Assembly (NCBI GenBank): GCA_050250255.1
Contig: JBFWOZ010000056.1
Coordinates: 1-16,921, forward strand
DNA from: Bdellovibrionales bacterium
GTDB lineage: Bacteria > Bdellovibrionota > Bdellovibrionia > Bdellovibrionales > DASUEL01
Direction of reading: 5' to 3'
DNA: 16,921 nt
Of this stretch, positions 1 through 16,784 are shown piece after piece. The notes under the pieces were generated by a model. That model did no database searches and was not told the origin of the DNA. It saw nothing but the letters and a program-made list of their open reading frames with translations. Each line of letters opens with the position of its first letter. Within the stretch, counting starts at the first letter, position 1. Made by a program: the position numbers and the translations under genes.

Positions 1-4
1 ATTT

Positions 5-18
5 CGCAAAGCTTTGCG
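5..18. repeat. Perfect 14-bp palindrome CGCAAAGCTTTGCG, 5 bp upstream of the transposase ATG
   Basis: Read directly: self-complementary. Function unknown. Confidence 0.6.
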
Positions 19-23
19 TTCCT

Positions 24-725
24 ATGAGAATCCCTAGGTCCATTCAACTCTTTCCAACCCAAGGACTGGTTCATCAATTTTGGCGCTGCCATAATAAAGA
101 GCATTATTTAAATTCCTCTGAAATGAAAGCCCTCTACCTTCAAAGTTTAAAAGACGCTTTGAAAACCCATAATAAAGAAAGTGCGCTCGAAATCCATGCT
201 TACACTTGTATGGATAATCACTTTCACAATCTCATGAATTATCTCAAAGAAAGCTCGAAACTCTCTTCTTTTTTAAGGCAAGCCCACGCTTTGTTTGGTT
301 CGAGATACAATAGAATCCACAAAAGATCCGGCAAAGTCGCCGAAGGTAGACCTAAAACTTCTTTAATTGAAAATACCGATCACCAGATGCGAGTGCACTT
401 TTATATAGAAGCCAATCCCATAAGGGCCGGAAAATGCAGTGAAAAGAAGTTAAGAGCGTATAAATATTCAAGCTACAGATTCTATGCCTACGGAATAAAA
501 GATGAGTTTACGGAGATTCTAACTATTCCCGATTGGTATATAGCTTTAGGAGGCACGCCTCGGGAAAGGCAAGCAAAGTACCGAAGTTTTTTTCAGGAGT
601 ATTTAAAGGACACGAACTTTACCAATTTCTTTGCCCCTTTTATTGGTTCACCCATTTGGGTATTGAAAACTCAGAAAGTTGCTATTGATCGAGTAAAAGA
701 AGCCGCGCTCATCTCTTCGGCTTGA
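24..725 (+). CDS. REP-associated tyrosine transposase (RAYT)-like HUH endonuclease, IS200/IS605 Y1 superfamily
   Basis: HUH motif in AYTCMDNHFH (H66/H68); catalytic Tyr motif YIEANPIRAG (Y127); YKYSSY (cf. Y.WSSY); N-terminal H..RxxN pattern (HQFWRCHN); C-terminal YIALG...ER...YR extension. No tnpB downstream. Confidence 0.88.
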   Translation: MRIPRSIQLFPTQGLVHQFWRCHNKEHYLNSSEMKALYLQSLKDALKTHNKESALEIHAYTCMDNHFHNLMNYLKESSKLSSFLRQAHALFGSRYNRIHKRSGKVAEGRPKTSLIENTDHQMRVHFYIEANPIRAGKCSEKKLRAYKYSSYRFYAYGIKDEFTEILTIPDWYIALGGTPRERQAKYRSFFQEYLKDTNFTNFFAPFIGSPIWVLKTQKVAIDRVKEAALISSA

Positions 726-984
726 AGAGAAAAATAAAAACATTCTAAATAGTCTAAAGGCGATTTTTTATTTAAGTCGATGGTAAACGTTCGACTAAAA
801 TTCGCAAAATATCCACGAAGCCTTTGCCGAGCCTCTCTTCGTTATCGAAAAAGAAAAAATAAGGCCTACTCGCAGCTTTCTTAAGCTAGAATTACTGAAA
901 GAATCGATAAAGCCAATGAATTTGAAAAGCTTGCCTCCGAAATGCACCTGACTTCAATGGGATAAGCTCCGTCCCTATGAAAGC

Positions 985-5904: not shown

Positions 5905-6885
5905 ATGAAAACGGCGACAAAAGATTCGACGAAAAAATTAGACGTGACCAGCGGTAGTTGTCTGAACGAGAAACTCTTAAAAAAGCTTCTTTTGATTTTT
6001 GGACTTCTTTTAATGTTGAGTCCACTTGTAGGCTGTACAAAAAATTCGGCAGAGATTGGTAGCGAAGGAAACCCTATTAAGTTTTTCCTGGTTCCTTCTG
6101 TGGATGCCAAAACACTCACAGACCGTTCAGTCGTTCTTGAGAAGTATCTCGCCGAACATACTCCATATAAATATAAGTTTGCGATTCCTGCTAGTTACGT
6201 TGCGGTGGTTGAAGCCTTCGGAACAAAACGTGCCGATGTCGCCTCCCTTGCCACTTTTGGATATATCATGGCCCACGATAAACATGGCGTAGAGGCGAAA
6301 ATCACCGTCGTTCGTTTTGGAGCTGACACTTACAAAGCCCAAATCGTCGCGCGCACGGACGGCCCGGTGAAAAAAGTAGAAGACATCACCGGTAAAAAGT
6401 TTGCCTTCGTAGATCCTGCATCGACGAGCGGTTACTTACTTCCTGCAAAACTCTTCGCCGATAAAGGCATTAAACCTAGCGAGACTGTTTTCGCGCAAAA
6501 GCACGACAACGTTATCACGATGGTTTACCAAGGCCAAGTGGCAGCTGGTGCGACCTTCTACACGGAGCCTGAAAAAGGTGTGATTCAAGATGCTCGCCGT
6601 CTTGTGAAAACTCAATTCCCAGATGTTGAGAAAAAAGTAAAAATCGTTGAGTTAACAGATCCTATTCCTAATGACCCGTTTGTATTCCGCAAAGATTTGC
6701 CAGAAGAAGTAAAAGAAAAGATCATTACCGCTCTTCTCGATTTCGCAAAAACCGAAGAAGGTAAAAAAGTGTTGTACGACCTTTACGGAATCACCGATCT
6801 TAAACGTTCTTCAGACGCAACCTACGACAGCGTTAGAGCGTTGCTCACAAAGCTCGGCACTTCTGCAAACCAATTGGTGAAGTAG
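5905..6885 (+). CDS. phnD: Phosphate/phosphite/phosphonate ABC transporter substrate-binding lipoprotein
   Basis: Lipobox LVGC (C44), SYVAVVEAF, GKKFAFVDPASTSGYLLP, HDNVI, PIPNDPFVFRKDLP; RBS GAAGGGG; followed by phnC/phnE homologues. Confidence 0.87.
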   Translation: MKTATKDSTKKLDVTSGSCLNEKLLKKLLLIFGLLLMLSPLVGCTKNSAEIGSEGNPIKFFLVPSVDAKTLTDRSVVLEKYLAEHTPYKYKFAIPASYVAVVEAFGTKRADVASLATFGYIMAHDKHGVEAKITVVRFGADTYKAQIVARTDGPVKKVEDITGKKFAFVDPASTSGYLLPAKLFADKGIKPSETVFAQKHDNVITMVYQGQVAAGATFYTEPEKGVIQDARRLVKTQFPDVEKKVKIVELTDPIPNDPFVFRKDLPEEVKEKIITALLDFAKTEEGKKVLYDLYGITDLKRSSDATYDSVRALLTKLGTSANQLVK

Positions 6886-6889
6886 TTTC

Positions 6890-7663
6890 ATGAACTCTTC
6901 ACCTATTTTATCGATTAAAAATTTAGTCAAAACTTATCCTAATGGAGTGCAAGCTCTCAAAGGTGTGAGTTTTGATGTGCATCCCGGAGAGTTTCTCGTC
7001 ATCATTGGTCTCAGCGGCTCTGGTAAGTCGACGATGCTTCGTTGTATCAACCACTTGAACGATACAACCAGTGGCGAAATCATTTTTAACGGAAAAGACA
7101 TCACTCGTCTCAATTCTACCGACGTGCGCTCTCTTCGTAGACAAATTGCGATGATCTTTCAGCAGTTCAACCTCGTACAGAGACACACGGTTTTAAGTAA
7201 CGTGCTGATGGGCTCTCTTTCTCGCACCAATACTTTCAAAAGCCTTCTCAACTTTTTCTCCGAAGAAGATCAGCAGAAGGCTCGTCACTTTTTGAAGCTT
7301 GTGGGCATTGAAGAGAAGGCGAACATCCGTGCCGATCAACTCTCAGGCGGTCAACAGCAGCGTGTAGCGATTGCTCGTGCGCTCACTCAAGATCCTAAAA
7401 TTTTATTAGCCGACGAGCCTGTAGCAAGCTTAGATCCAGCCACTTGCCATAGCGTAATGGACTACCTTGATAAAGTGAATAAGCAACTTGGCATTACCAT
7501 CATTTGTAACCTTCACTTTTTAAGTCTTGTGAGACAGTACGCCTCCCGCGTGATTGCACTTAAGGGTGGAGAAATTGTTTACAATGGAAGTCCTAAGGAC
7601 ATCTCTACCGAGTGGTTCAAAAAAATCTACGGCGAAGACGCCCGGGAAGTTCATATCAATTAA
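6890..7663 (+). CDS. phnC: Phosphonate-type ABC transporter ATP-binding protein
   Basis: Walker A GLSGSGKS, MIFQQFNLV, VLSNVLMG, LSGGQQQRVAIARAL, LADEPVASLDP, ICNLH. Confidence 0.92.
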   Translation: MNSSPILSIKNLVKTYPNGVQALKGVSFDVHPGEFLVIIGLSGSGKSTMLRCINHLNDTTSGEIIFNGKDITRLNSTDVRSLRRQIAMIFQQFNLVQRHTVLSNVLMGSLSRTNTFKSLLNFFSEEDQQKARHFLKLVGIEEKANIRADQLSGGQQQRVAIARALTQDPKILLADEPVASLDPATCHSVMDYLDKVNKQLGITIICNLHFLSLVRQYASRVIALKGGEIVYNGSPKDISTEWFKKIYGEDAREVHIN

Positions 7664-7690: not shown

Positions 7691-8719
7691 GTGGCACAGC
7701 TGAAATTTAAAAGTCGATTATTAGACGCGATCATTTTTGGTTTTCTTCTAGGGGTGTTGATTTTTGTTGTTACTCAACCTAGTCGGGAACAGCTTCTTCA
7801 GCTTTCGACGATTGTCTCCATCGCTCTTCTTTGCATGGGAGTTGGTGCCTTTTTAAGCTTCGTTCTTAATGCAATGAAGATCAAAACTTTAGGAGAATCG
7901 GTTTTTGATCCCCCACACTTAAAAGCTCAAGAAACCAAAACCTGGTTTAAAACTTTTTGGGGCGTTCAACTCATCGTGGGCTTCATTGTTGCATTTGTAA
8001 CGGGCATTCACGTAACGGAATTTAGTATCTTCGAACTTCTTTCCGAAGATGGCTTTCATGGAGCCGGTCGCATTTTCTCAAGTCTTCTCCACCCAAACTT
8101 TGAGATTCTTCCGCAAGCTCTTCTTGCGATCGTGCAAACGATCTTTATGGCTTTCACCGCAACCACTCTCGCAATTCCGGTGGCTTTCGTGCTCAGCTTT
8201 CTCTGCGCAAAAAATATCATGGGTCATACGCCGATTGGTTTTTCGATCTATATGCTTCTTCGCTCTTTTTTGAACGTCACGAGATCTATCGAGCCTCTTA
8301 TCTGGGCGATCATTTTCTCTGTGTGGGTAGGCATCGGACCTTTCTCCGGGATGTTAGCCTTAATGCTTCACTCGATCGCTTCACTGGCAAAGCAGTACTC
8401 CGAGATGATCGAGAGTGTTGATAGAGGACCTATCGAGGGCATTCAATCCACTGGCGCTGGAACGCTTCAGGTGCTCTGGTTCGCGGTCGTACCGCAGATC
8501 ATTCTACCTTACGTCTCTTTTACGATTTATCGCTGGGATATCAACGTACGCATGGCCACCGTAATTGGTCTTGTCGGTGGTGGTGGTATCGGTACCATGC
8601 TCATTCAGTACCAAGGGCAAGCCCTCTGGAATGAAGTAGGCTGCCTCGTTCTCTTAATTGCTTTTGTAGTTTGGGCGATGGACACAGGCTCCGCGTACAT
8701 CCGCGAAGCCATTAAATAA
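7691..8719 (+). CDS. phnE: Phosphonate-type ABC transporter permease with N-terminal membrane extension
   Basis: RSIEPLIWAIIF..VGIGPFSG.LAL, K.YSE.IE.VD.GP.EG, YRWDINVRMATVIGLVGGGGIG; GTG start after RBS GAGGGG. Confidence 0.9.
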   Translation: MAQLKFKSRLLDAIIFGFLLGVLIFVVTQPSREQLLQLSTIVSIALLCMGVGAFLSFVLNAMKIKTLGESVFDPPHLKAQETKTWFKTFWGVQLIVGFIVAFVTGIHVTEFSIFELLSEDGFHGAGRIFSSLLHPNFEILPQALLAIVQTIFMAFTATTLAIPVAFVLSFLCAKNIMGHTPIGFSIYMLLRSFLNVTRSIEPLIWAIIFSVWVGIGPFSGMLALMLHSIASLAKQYSEMIESVDRGPIEGIQSTGAGTLQVLWFAVVPQIILPYVSFTIYRWDINVRMATVIGLVGGGGIGTMLIQYQGQALWNEVGCLVLLIAFVVWAMDTGSAYIREAIK

Positions 8720-8804
8720 AAGTGCCAGTGTCTTTTTTCTGGCTACATTGCGTTCATTTTGTGAAGCAACGTAGCCAGAAAAAAGACACTGGCACTTTTA
8801 TTTA
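8713..8804. repeat. 92-bp palindromic element (two perfect 34-bp inverted arms); REPIN-like and probable bidirectional terminator
   Basis: 8713-8746 TAAATAAAAGTGCCAGTGTCTTTTTTCTGGCTAC is the exact reverse complement of 8771-8804; the 24-nt spacer also pairs (TTGC/GCAA, TTCA/TGAA); it fills the gap between two convergent genes. Confidence 0.9.
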
Positions 8805-10961
8805 GCGAGCGATGGATTCGCGACGCTCACCTTTTTTGGTGCGTCTTTCCATTTTGCCTTGTGTATTCACTGTCATGTGTGATCCCGACTCACCGTCATA
8901 CACCCATCCGCAAGCATCATTGGATCTGGAAGGATCAAAAGTTAAATCCACTTCTTTATCCAAATCATTGTTCTCAGATCTCACTTTAAGAGTCAGAGTG
9001 TTTTTTCCTGGGTGTACTTCTTCCTGAAGATCCTTCCAACCACCCCATGGTTCATAGCGACCATTTTCGGTTGTTGCATGACAGCTAATGATTTGTTGAA
9101 CCACATTTGTGCGATTGCCCATCGAATCAACCGCATACCTTGCAATCACCTTATTGAAAGGTTTTGCATCGGCTGTTGGATCACTTCGTCGACCTGCATC
9201 TGGGCAGAGATTTTCTGTCGCCTTTTCGAACACAGTTCCGTTTTTAAATTGAAGCGGATTACTCATCATAAATGTTGGGTTATGATCTCCTGCTTTGTAC
9301 ACATTGGCATATTGAGGAGTCTTCACCCCTTTTTTCTCAGCCATGTTCCAAAAACTTCCAGTCTCTAAATACTCAAGAGTTCCAGGTTTACCGTCATTCC
9401 CCATTTTGTTTTGATAAACGGCAAAGTACTCTGCGAGCTCTTTAATTTCCACTTTGCCATCATCCAATTTCACGCGTGAACAGATAAAAACCCCACTAGC
9501 ACAAGCGCTGTGAACTCCTCCTGGACAATTTGGAGTGGTTCCATCTTTTCCAACTTTACCACCACCAGTAGCGACACGAAACGGAAGTCCATCATTAGCG
9601 CCCGCATTGATTTTCATCATCTGCCACTTGGTATTTTTGTCGTTTGATTTTCGCTCTTCACATCGGCTAATTTGAGCATCAACGCTGTCGTACATTCCCG
9701 ATGTAGCACCGATCTCTTCCAAATACCTTTGAGCCGAAGCGCTATCCACCCGACCATGTTTGTTAGAGATGCCGCGTCCTGAATCATCCTTCACAACTCC
9801 CAGTCGACCTAAATCAAATTTTCCATCTGGCCTTACGAGCCAATTGATCGGATTCATCGAATCTTTATGATCACCTTTAATTTTGTCTTTCGTAATTACG
9901 ATTGGCGCTAGCGGTTTGCCCTCGCGATTGGTTCCCGCAACCGTCATAACCACTCGATCATCTTTTGCATCGACTTTTTTAACATCGATCGTTTTCGTTT
10001 TATTAGGACCTTGAGTTCCATCAAAAATTCTATTTTTCACAATTTTAGTTGGAGTCGTATAAGTTACGATACCTGCATCACAAGATTCTATTTTGTCGTA
10101 ACCTTGGCAAATCTGCCCCGCATTTGGGTCTTCACCATTACAAATACGTTCTAATTCTCCAGTTTGTGGAGGCTTAGTTCCACCACCCGTTTTTCTGCCT
10201 GCCACTTCTGCCGCAAAATCTCTCAAGATATCGCAGTCTGGAGAGTTATGAGTCACGTGAAGACGGTTGGCATATCGTTTCTGATTTAAGCCGGTGACCA
10301 AGTCAGAACAAAAAGTTTTAAGTTGATTGTTAATGTTATCCCAACGTTCTTGGGCGCCCTCTTTTTTGAGCATGCAGTTTGTAAGTTTGTCGATGTTCGC
10401 ATAACCAAAAGCCACACAAGCTGCCGTTGCTCCTTGCTTGGCCTTTACACAGCACGAACCTTCGGAAGTTCCTTCACACGAGGAGTTGTCGGTATCTGCT
10501 CCGCAAGTTCCAAAATAATCTTGGTTACATTTAACAGTTTTAGTTTGTTGATCACACCATACGTTTCCGTATTGCATATCTCCCATAGTAACGTTGCTAA
10601 AACCTTCCTTGGGACACTGAGGAGGATCGCGCATTGGCTTTGTATTCAAAATCCACCCTGCAAAAATACACTGCTTGGGGATTTTGTTTCCGCTAGCCGC
10701 ATGAGCTTCCTCAATGATGTGCGGAAGCATTCTCTCAAGGAACGAAAGATCGGCGTATCGCGCTCTCGAGTTTTTGTCGTACTTTGCAAGGAAGTCCATC
10801 ATTTTAGAAATCATCTTTTTTTGATTCTCTTTTGAGAGCTTTTTAAACTCTTTAAAGCTCATCAAAAAGTTTTGCGGTTTATCGTGCGAAACGCGGGCTT
10901 GAGTGGAAACACTCATGCTTAAAGTAAAGACCGCCAATAACAAAGCGACAAGAATTCTCAT
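8802..10961 (-). CDS. Large secreted cysteine-rich hypothetical protein (~719 aa)
   Basis: Long ORF; RBS GAGGGG 7 nt before ATG 10961 (ORF track start 10994 is a TTG); Sec-type signal peptide MRILVALLLAVFTLSMSVSTQA; 22 Cys; no recognised catalytic motif. Confidence 0.85.
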   Translation of the reverse strand: MRILVALLLAVFTLSMSVSTQARVSHDKPQNFLMSFKEFKKLSKENQKKMISKMMDFLAKYDKNSRARYADLSFLERMLPHIIEEAHAASGNKIPKQCIFAGWILNTKPMRDPPQCPKEGFSNVTMGDMQYGNVWCDQQTKTVKCNQDYFGTCGADTDNSSCEGTSEGSCCVKAKQGATAACVAFGYANIDKLTNCMLKKEGAQERWDNINNQLKTFCSDLVTGLNQKRYANRLHVTHNSPDCDILRDFAAEVAGRKTGGGTKPPQTGELERICNGEDPNAGQICQGYDKIESCDAGIVTYTTPTKIVKNRIFDGTQGPNKTKTIDVKKVDAKDDRVVMTVAGTNREGKPLAPIVITKDKIKGDHKDSMNPINWLVRPDGKFDLGRLGVVKDDSGRGISNKHGRVDSASAQRYLEEIGATSGMYDSVDAQISRCEERKSNDKNTKWQMMKINAGANDGLPFRVATGGGKVGKDGTTPNCPGGVHSACASGVFICSRVKLDDGKVEIKELAEYFAVYQNKMGNDGKPGTLEYLETGSFWNMAEKKGVKTPQYANVYKAGDHNPTFMMSNPLQFKNGTVFEKATENLCPDAGRRSDPTADAKPFNKVIARYAVDSMGNRTNVVQQIISCHATTENGRYEPWGGWKDLQEEVHPGKNTLTLKVRSENNDLDKEVDLTFDPSRSNDACGWVYDGESGSHMTVNTQGKMERRTKKGERRESIAR

Positions 10962-11051
10962 ATGTGAACCCCTCATGGACTCATGTTTAAACAAATGTAT
11001 ACGCTTTTATTTTATACAGTCTTCCAAGGTGCCGTAAATAAGGGGTTTGCC

Positions 11052-16688: not shown

Positions 16689-16784
16689 ATCGGTACTGTA
16701 AGTTCCTCCGCCTATTTTTAAAAGCTCTTTCCTAAAAGGTGCGCCGCTCCTTTTTGTAGCGAGGGTGCGTTAAGAAGAGTACTT

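Follow-up and report, generated by a model that had tools for sequence, protein, structure and literature searches.

To our knowledge, systems in which repetitive extragenic palindromic (REP) sequences are paired with a REP-associated tyrosine transposase (RAYT) have been studied almost only in the gamma-proteobacteria. One of the closest described counterparts is that of Pseudomonas fluorescens SBW25 and other gamma-proteobacteria (Bertels and Rainey; RAYT groups 2 and 3, in parts of PMC5581495), where two inverted REPs form a hairpin, the REPIN, that is dispersed and extragenic and accounts for the commonest 16-mers of the genome, and where each REP family flanks a single RAYT, with several such pairs per genome. 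Passages of PMC6006769 and PMC5581495 describe this REPtron/REPIN arrangement as one tnpA-REP gene per REP family, flanked by that family. In Escherichia coli the REP and BIME (bacterial interspersed mosaic element) sequences go with TnpA-REP (PDB 4ER8; portions of PMC3479197), an HUH enzyme with its tyrosine in a Y---NP motif and with a gene flanked by REPs; the GTAG head of these REPs adjoins the base of a long hairpin with bulges, and the enzyme cleaves at CT. More distant are the IS200/IS605 insertion sequences (IS608, ISDra2), with Y1/HUH chemistry on single-stranded hairpin ends, IS608 being the model, in part of PMC3479197, for a guide sequence beside the hairpin that chooses the cut site. 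The subject here is a 92-nt hairpin at positions 8713–8804 of a 16,921-bp stretch from a member of the Bdellovibrionales (the window), which is the entire contig C56 (JBFWOZ010000056.1) of a draft genome of 3.09 Mb, 95 contigs and 43.7% G+C. It belongs to a repeat family (F1) whose unit is an inverted doublet, whose arms also flank an intact RAYT gene on another contig (C1, 52114–52743) and whose copies lie flush with stop codons. The hairpin is a REPIN that is quite probably copied or moved in trans by this RAYT. It is a known kind of element, in a lineage for which none was found described, and its unusual features are flawless arms, built-in stops and mirrored ends.

The hairpin had been recognized in a first-pass annotation, made from the sequence alone, as two identical 34-bp inverted arms in a structure of about 92 nt, a description that sequence reading, a repeat finder and folding all confirm. 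The repeat finder gives arms of 39 nt each (8713–8751 and 8766–8804) that are 97% complementary across a gap of 14 nt. The only mismatch between them is at arm position 35, which leaves 34 identical nucleotides in each arm (Table 1). As RNA, the region 8700–8815 folds at −70.9 kcal/mol compared with −24.4 ± 3.4 kcal/mol for 200 dinucleotide shuffles, none of which is as good (z −13.9), and as DNA it folds at −46.7 kcal/mol (z −13.8). The inner end of each arm is formed by GTAG (8771–8774) or its complement (8743–8746), followed by a GCCAG-N10-CTGGC stem–loop, and an AAAAG...CTTTT palindrome can be read in the arms; all of these are present as first described. A search of Rfam with the hairpin returned only sub-threshold look-alikes of microRNA hairpins, the best scoring 39.4 bits (gathering score 100).

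A k-mer census of the genome, as the first-pass annotation had proposed, demonstrates that the arms are multicopy and not single-copy. Each 14-mer of the arms has 19–37 genome occurrences against one or two for each 14-mer of the spacer. A whole-genome search with the 25-nt arm core, allowing up to 3 mismatches, gives 33 matches, one locus being represented twice in the assembly, at the start of contig C15 and again at that of C54. The 31 distinct F1 arms lie on 13 contigs and make up 14 inverted doublets, one extra arm and one pair of arms 739 nt apart; as the draft is in 95 contigs, all repeat counts are lower bounds. The arm spacing is 24–25 nt in every doublet. The widely spaced pair is on C1 and the extra arm on C3, in a three-arm array. 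This array (C3 108175–108318) comprises a doublet and a further arm 56 nt on, is of the same subtype as the window copy and lies between a 110-aa open reading frame (ORF) and an SdhB-like gene. The commonest 16-mers in the entire genome are the arms of five REP families (F1–F5), the two variants of F1 being counted 19 and 14 times. A terminator evolved in situ was considered as a separate origin for the hairpin and rejected, given 14 near-identical copies in the genome.

The 14 doublets behave as units. The two 25-nt arm cores of each are perfectly complementary, with 0 mismatches in 14 of 14 doublets, and the T and A variants of the arm are never mixed inside a doublet (8 have T, 6 have A). 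Between loci the arms are 97.9% identical and the spacers 73%. In the spacer stem, two base pairs vary on both sides between loci (TA to CG or the reverse), with CA and TG intermediates.

The widely spaced F1 arms on C1, at 52092 (+) and 52857 (−), enclose a single intact ORF of 209 aa on the minus strand. Its product contains the motifs NHYH and YKYVYRNPV and scores above the cut-off for Pfam Y1_Tnp (29.8 bits, cut-off 23). A profile made from this protein and two paralogs finds TnpA-REP 4ER8 as the best solved-structure match (E 3.6e-11), whereas the match to the ISDra2 transposase is weak (E 0.37). The genome has four RAYT paralogs of 37–61% identity, each with a different flanking arm family. 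The nearest paralog (61%, on contig C60 and cut by the contig end) has the most F1-like arms, their inner half being common to both, and the widely spaced arm pairs of the families on C16 and C8 likewise enclose a Y1 gene. Just inside the C1 arms are sequences similar to either half of the REPIN spacer, so that the doublet looks like the RAYT unit minus its middle. Judged by sequence, the C1 locus and the doublets match the published REPtron/REPIN arrangement. The proposal that the hairpin is a REPIN is therefore upheld by a multicopy family, 14 doublets and a RAYT-type gene with these arms on both sides. The related arms do lie beside a RAYT, but the RAYT concerned differs from the one first proposed, which is the HUH/Y1 gene at the start of the window (see below). 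The F1 RAYT unit as a whole (C1 51604–53434) lies between smpB and a 183-aa ORF, both of which have their stops in the flanking arms, and the stop of the RAYT gene itself is the TAG of the inner GTAG.

F1 shares with the SBW25-type systems the inverted REP pair that forms a hairpin, its dispersed and extragenic copies, its rank among the commonest genomic 16-mers, and the rule of one RAYT per family, flanked by it, with several pairs in the genome. It differs from them in its phylum, Bdellovibrionota, in a RAYT clade that scores below the NCBIfam cut-off, in its low copy number (14 doublets), in its flawless arms, in an outer TAA that is the stop codon of the flanking gene, and in outermost bases that are mirrored within each locus and differ between loci. 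With the E. coli system it has in common the GTAG head, the REP-flanked gene and an HUH enzyme with a Y---NP tyrosine. The GTAG of F1 is followed by a 5-bp stem and a 10-nt loop, whereas that of E. coli marks the base of a long, bulged hairpin, and an AAAGG...CCTTT stem with an A/T tail that is not E. coli-like recurs in F1–F4. The IS200/IS605 elements resemble F1 in the Y1/HUH chemistry predicted for its RAYT; unlike them, F1 has a RAYT that is single-copy for its family, and its abundant units are doublets that carry no gene. A full set of this kind, with five REP families and four RAYT paralogs, is thus found in a lineage of predatory bacteria. The 14 flawless, stop-flush doublets offer a compact system for questions of REP recognition by a RAYT and of the REPIN as a terminator.

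On the model of E. coli TnpA-REP and of IS608, an arm made single-stranded at the replication fork would present its GTAG, small stem–loop and conserved A/T tail to the HUH/tyrosine enzyme (His60, His62 and Tyr119), which would bind the arm, cut it and rejoin it. The doublet would spread as a unit, being a deletion derivative of the RAYT unit, and it is on these analogies that F1 doublets are taken to be mobile. As a side effect, the 92-nt hairpin and its T-run could end transcription, or shield the 3′ end, of both the phnDCE mRNA and the convergent transcript. By eye, GGCAC and then TTTTATTT is present on both strands of the hairpin; its form and place suggest a role as a two-way terminator or 3′ shield.

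All 14 F1 loci are intergenic except for stop codons. With crude gene calls (greedy longest ORFs of at least 100 aa), the flanking genes converge at 11 of the 14, run in tandem at the other 3 and diverge at none; convergence accounts for 17.3% of all adjacent gene pairs, giving a binomial value of 9e-7 for the F1 excess. Of 27 arms with a gene 3′ end facing them at 150 nt or less, 23 have a stop whose final base is 1–7 nt from the GTGCC core, so that the stop falls in the outer TAAAAG of the element. The TAAAAG end is also found in families other than F1, which adjoin stops less strictly. The same crude calls give 453 convergent pairs, of which 53 share their stops in a 4-nt YTAR overlap and 194 have stops at most 12 nt apart. 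Many gene pairs therefore leave no room for a terminator, and the compactness of the genome partly accounts for the placement of F1 flush with stops. REPs are known, according to portions of PMC3733652, to favour convergent and unidirectional junctions and to be able to provide stop codons.

In the window, the hairpin exactly occupies the gap that separates phnE from a convergent 730-aa ORF, with the TAA stop of each gene inside an arm end. The outer end of the left arm, TAAATAAAAG, contains the phnE stop (8717–8719), and the right arm closes on three bases complementary to the TAA that ends the minus-strand ORF. The C-terminus of PhnE, ...AYIREAIK*, coincides in position with those of the orthologs at all 13 relatives' loci examined, and the matches of its orthologs run to the last residue in 30 of 30 relatives. 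YebC, encoded beside an F1 copy on contig C34, has one additional codon (...ALKN* compared with ...ALK* or ...AIK* in relatives). From the ends of these two proteins it follows that the F1 element starts at the native stop or within a codon of it.

Beyond the family consensus, the outer ends of the two arms at a locus mirror each other over 4–11 nt, in a sequence that changes from locus to locus. For F1 the mean mirrored length is 6.7 nt within the same locus and 2.8 nt between arms of different loci; the corresponding values are 6.3 and 2.5 nt for F5, 6.8 and 0.9 nt for F3, and 3.9 and 2.4 nt for F4. At the window copy the mirrored TAAA takes in the last codons of phnE on the left and the stop of the other gene on the right. 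Mirrored ends could arise from copying of one arm to the other in the hairpin state, from selection for pairing, or from descent within sub-lineages. At C30 5060–5200, the two genes that converge on an F1 doublet end in SRSWQAQ* and SRNWVSQ*, and 17 of 24 nt are mirrored, which suggests that the palindrome extends into coding sequence there. The orthologs of these two genes are at 39% and 25–35% identity and their alignments end before the tails, so a native tail cannot be told apart from an added one.

Among the 41 genomes of the order (the source genome and 40 relatives), F1 DNA is found in the source genome only, which is alone in its genus, with the exception of one 42-nt match (E 8.4e-4). 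In metagenome contigs of the JGI the exact F1 arm pattern has no match, and a looser doublet pattern has five, all unrelated palindromes. Orthologs of phnE are present in 30 of the 40 relatives, but the 730-aa ORF adjoins in none of 13 loci examined; yebC is present in 39 of 40, with the source genome's neighbour adjacent in none of 29 loci. As the neighbours differ in every relative examined, no true empty site can be defined, and the comparison of the phnE 3′ junction for empty sites that the first-pass annotation had recommended therefore yields none. The 730-aa ORF without counterpart in the relatives and the yebC junction together point to F1 doublets being located where gene order is disrupted.

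The RAYT clade is much more widely distributed than F1. Genome contigs contain 395 relatives of the C1 RAYT, and nearly all of the best 80 bear Bdellovibrionota group names. Of the loci from these 80 that have complete flanks, 48 out of 59 have flanking inverted arms of at least 14 nt, many of the form AAAGGT[AG]CC...CTTT. A strict test for a stem of A-run and T-run, the feature that sets F1–F4 apart from E. coli, is passed by 11 of these 48 arms from other genomes against 0.2 expected. In the complete genome of Bdellovibrio bacteriovorus Bd16, the RAYT-flanking arm GGTGCCTGSTTCTTTTTGCGG occurs 39 times at up to 2 mismatches and a control pattern not at all; some of these arms form doublets 60 nt apart and some are clustered around the RAYT. 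A RAYT clade with similar flanking arms thus runs through the Bdellovibrionota, including the model species B. bacteriovorus. The earlier statement that no characterized system is known in this lineage agrees with full-text searches on Bdellovibrio and the Deltaproteobacteria, which gave no relevant paper. Literature searches found no description of the Bd16 REP family and no paper on RAYTs or REPINs in the Bdellovibrio lineage; they covered main texts, and supplements may list Bdellovibrio RAYTs.

Several observations weigh against a REPIN moved by the C1 RAYT. The C1 protein matches the NCBIfam model REP_Tyr_transpos (NF047646) at E 6.4e-19 but its 68.3 bits are below the 80-bit cut-off; it appears to be a member of a divergent RAYT clade, with predicted chemistry, for which a score below the cut-off is no exclusion. 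Each arm had been said to have internal structure, which holds for its sequence but poorly for its energy, the small stem–loop of the arm being weak as DNA (−4.4 kcal/mol, with 11 of 200 shuffles equally stable). The A/T stem recurrent in F1–F4 does not have the GTAG at its base. No gain, loss or excision was seen, both junctions tested being without synteny in the relatives. Three landfill-metagenome runs from one study carry the stretch as assembled contigs, and these contigs break inside the repeat, with no joint reported; no RNA run is listed as carrying it. A pattern scan for terminators and promoters over 8400–9100 gave 0 sites; its terminator rules (a loop of 3–8 nt and a T-run outside the stem) are ill-suited to a stem with an A/T tract at its base. 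Finally, hairpin-templated repair or selection for pairing could produce perfect arms and mirrored ends without ongoing transposition, and a second arm-flanked gene could lie in an assembly gap.

If the REPIN is nevertheless moved by the C1 RAYT, a more far-reaching proposal can be made, although only tentatively and with the balance of probability against it. RAYT-driven REPINs of the Bdellovibrio-like type might target convergent junctions where stop meets stop, their TAAAAG ends rebuilding both stops, which would make for a harmless landing and provide gene pairs that have hardly any spacer with a shared two-way terminator. The arms would be kept perfect by arm-to-arm copying in the hairpin, a process that would sometimes rewrite the last codons of the neighbouring genes, as on C30.

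Among other explanations, it is conceivable, if rather unlikely, that the copies are now fixed parts of the host, cassettes serving as bidirectional terminators or mRNA stabilizers that the RAYT dispersed on one past occasion and that selection, or copying from arm to arm, has maintained since. Such an origin is consistent with copies that lie almost only behind genes, flush with stops and at junctions with little other spacer, with the perfect stems and the two-sided TA–CG changes of the spacer stem, and with the T-run found on either strand after the G+C portion of the stem. It is in keeping, too, with RAYT/REPIN systems being held, in part of PMC5581495, to be vertically inherited over long periods. 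The contrast between arms at 98% and spacers at 73% identity is nonetheless a better fit to recent copying or enzyme recognition than to 14 independently kept terminators; in addition the RAYT ORF is intact and the terminator scan is empty. Fixed host parts are compatible with, and do not exclude, a REPIN copied by the C1 RAYT.

The Correia elements of Neisseria (CREE, Correia repeat enclosed elements; NEMIS, Neisseria miniature insertion sequences) are inverted repeats of about 100 nt that lie beside genes, have TA ends and are possible terminators or processing sites; we know of no transposase partner for them. It is very improbable that the F1 hairpin is a miniature inverted-repeat transposable element (MITE) of this terminal inverted repeat (TIR) type, moved by a DDE transposase with a TA target duplication, the Y1 gene being a passenger. 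The long perfect inverted ends, the small size, the position beside genes and the T-A at both outer ends of most copies would suit a MITE. However, F1 is unlike the Correia elements in its Y1 gene between two arms and its REP-like arms with a GTAG head, and the sole long-spaced F1 arm pair encloses this Y1 gene and nothing else, although another might go unseen in a draft assembly. The C16 and C8 families behave likewise, as do the RAYT loci with flanking inverted arms in other genomes, and a fixed 2-bp duplication does not account for locus-specific mirrored ends of 4–11 nt. The arm census found no DDE gene with F1 ends; no wider search for DDE transposases with such ends was made.

The first-pass annotation had assigned the hairpin to the HUH/Y1 gene at 24–725 of the window, an extremely improbable partner in spite of its HUH motif (NHFHNLM), its Y---NP tyrosine (Y127), its match to REP_Tyr_transpos (E 3e-11) and its position only 8 kb away on the same contig, since it is 24% identical to the arm-flanked RAYT, is present as 4 copies at 86–100% identity and one at 73%, has unit termini of its own and a 5′ hairpin unrelated to the F1 arms, adjoins no F1 arm, falls under both curated cut-offs (43.4 bits, cut-off 80, for REP_Tyr_transpos; 18.3, cut-off 23, for Pfam Y1_Tnp), has no sequence match to a solved structure, and resembles TIR-flanked RAYT relatives that are described as not REP-associated (in parts of PMC6006769 and PMC3733652). 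The arm census found no F1 arm in or beside any copy of this ORF, nor at those contig ends from which the window carries on, although a check just upstream of position 1 had been advised in particular. For annotation, the lesson is that a RAYT-like gene near a REPIN is not necessarily its partner, and that an arm-flanked gene should be looked for.

The copies of this ORF are placed on C56, C57 (93%), C20 (86%) and C3 (73%), with end fragments on C75, C83 and C93, and their similarity extends beyond the ORF by about 100 bp on the upstream and about 250 bp on the downstream side. Two complete units, of 1052 and 1058 bp, have 9-bp inverted termini (GGGACGGAG and CTCCGTCCC). The left terminus of the window unit is beyond the contig start and is present at the ends of C75 and C83; since the window begins within the unit, the unit probably broke the assembly. 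The comparison class for this ORF, as distinct from the hairpin, is that of the TIRYT/TIRtron elements, RAYT-like proteins with TIRs instead of REPs (Di Nocera 2013, PMC3733652; subclass 2.1 of Quentin 2018, PMC6006769; both in part), and the unit appears by its sequence features to match this class. Like them it has a RAYT-like HUH/Y---NP protein longer than the core RAYTs, short G-rich inverted termini and no REP beside it. Its termini, (G)GGGACGG, fit the published TIRYT motif GGGGWSAS at 7 of 8 positions, in one copy only. The helix–turn–helix domain that is C-terminal in most published TIRYTs was not detected in ORF 24–725 by Pfam at E values up to 10. The class is described as low-copy, whereas the window unit is multicopy at 86–100% identity, and the entire unit of about 1.05 kb appears to have been copied, which is unusual for TIRYTs. 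The 9-mer GGGACGGAG has 33 genome occurrences, mostly with C after and G before it and many of them outside copies of the window unit; these sites may mark the ends of further inverted-repeat elements.

Table 1. Features of the window (contig C56), with positions counted from its first nucleotide.
Feature	Position	Strand	Remarks
Right ~975 bp of ~1.05-kb unit	1..975	+	Bounded by GGGACGGAG...CTCCGTCCC; right terminus 967–975
HUH/Y1 gene	24..725	+	NHFHNLM; Y127-IEANP; multicopy, TIRYT-like
phnE (phosphonate ABC permease)	7691..8719	+	TIGR01097 258.9 bits, cut-off 216.7
Left arm of hairpin	8713..8746		F1 subtype AAAAGTGCC / GTGTCT; inner end CTAC (complement of GTAG)
Spacer of hairpin	8747..8770		24 nt, asymmetric, ATTGCGTTCATTTTGTGAAGCAAC; tip of hairpin; variable part of the family between loci
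Right arm of hairpin	8771..8804		GTAG, then GCCAG-AAAAAAGACA-CTGGC, tail ACTTTTATTTA
Convergent 730-aa ORF	8802..10994	−	Stop TAA 8802–8804 inside right arm
Single arm of REP family F2	16733..16760	+	TAAAAGGTGCGCCGCTCCTTTTTGTAGC; ~45 nt upstream of purH start (16688, minus strand)

The gene phnE closes the run phnD (5905–6885), phnC (6890–7663) and phnE. The 730-aa ORF that converges on it matched no Pfam or NCBIfam family and was not found in any of the 40 relatives. Only one copy of the hairpin had been seen in this window, which is correct for F1; the window also contains a separate arm of the second family, F2. Arms of F2 flank the RAYT paralog on contig C16, occur mainly as singlets and often face gene starts.

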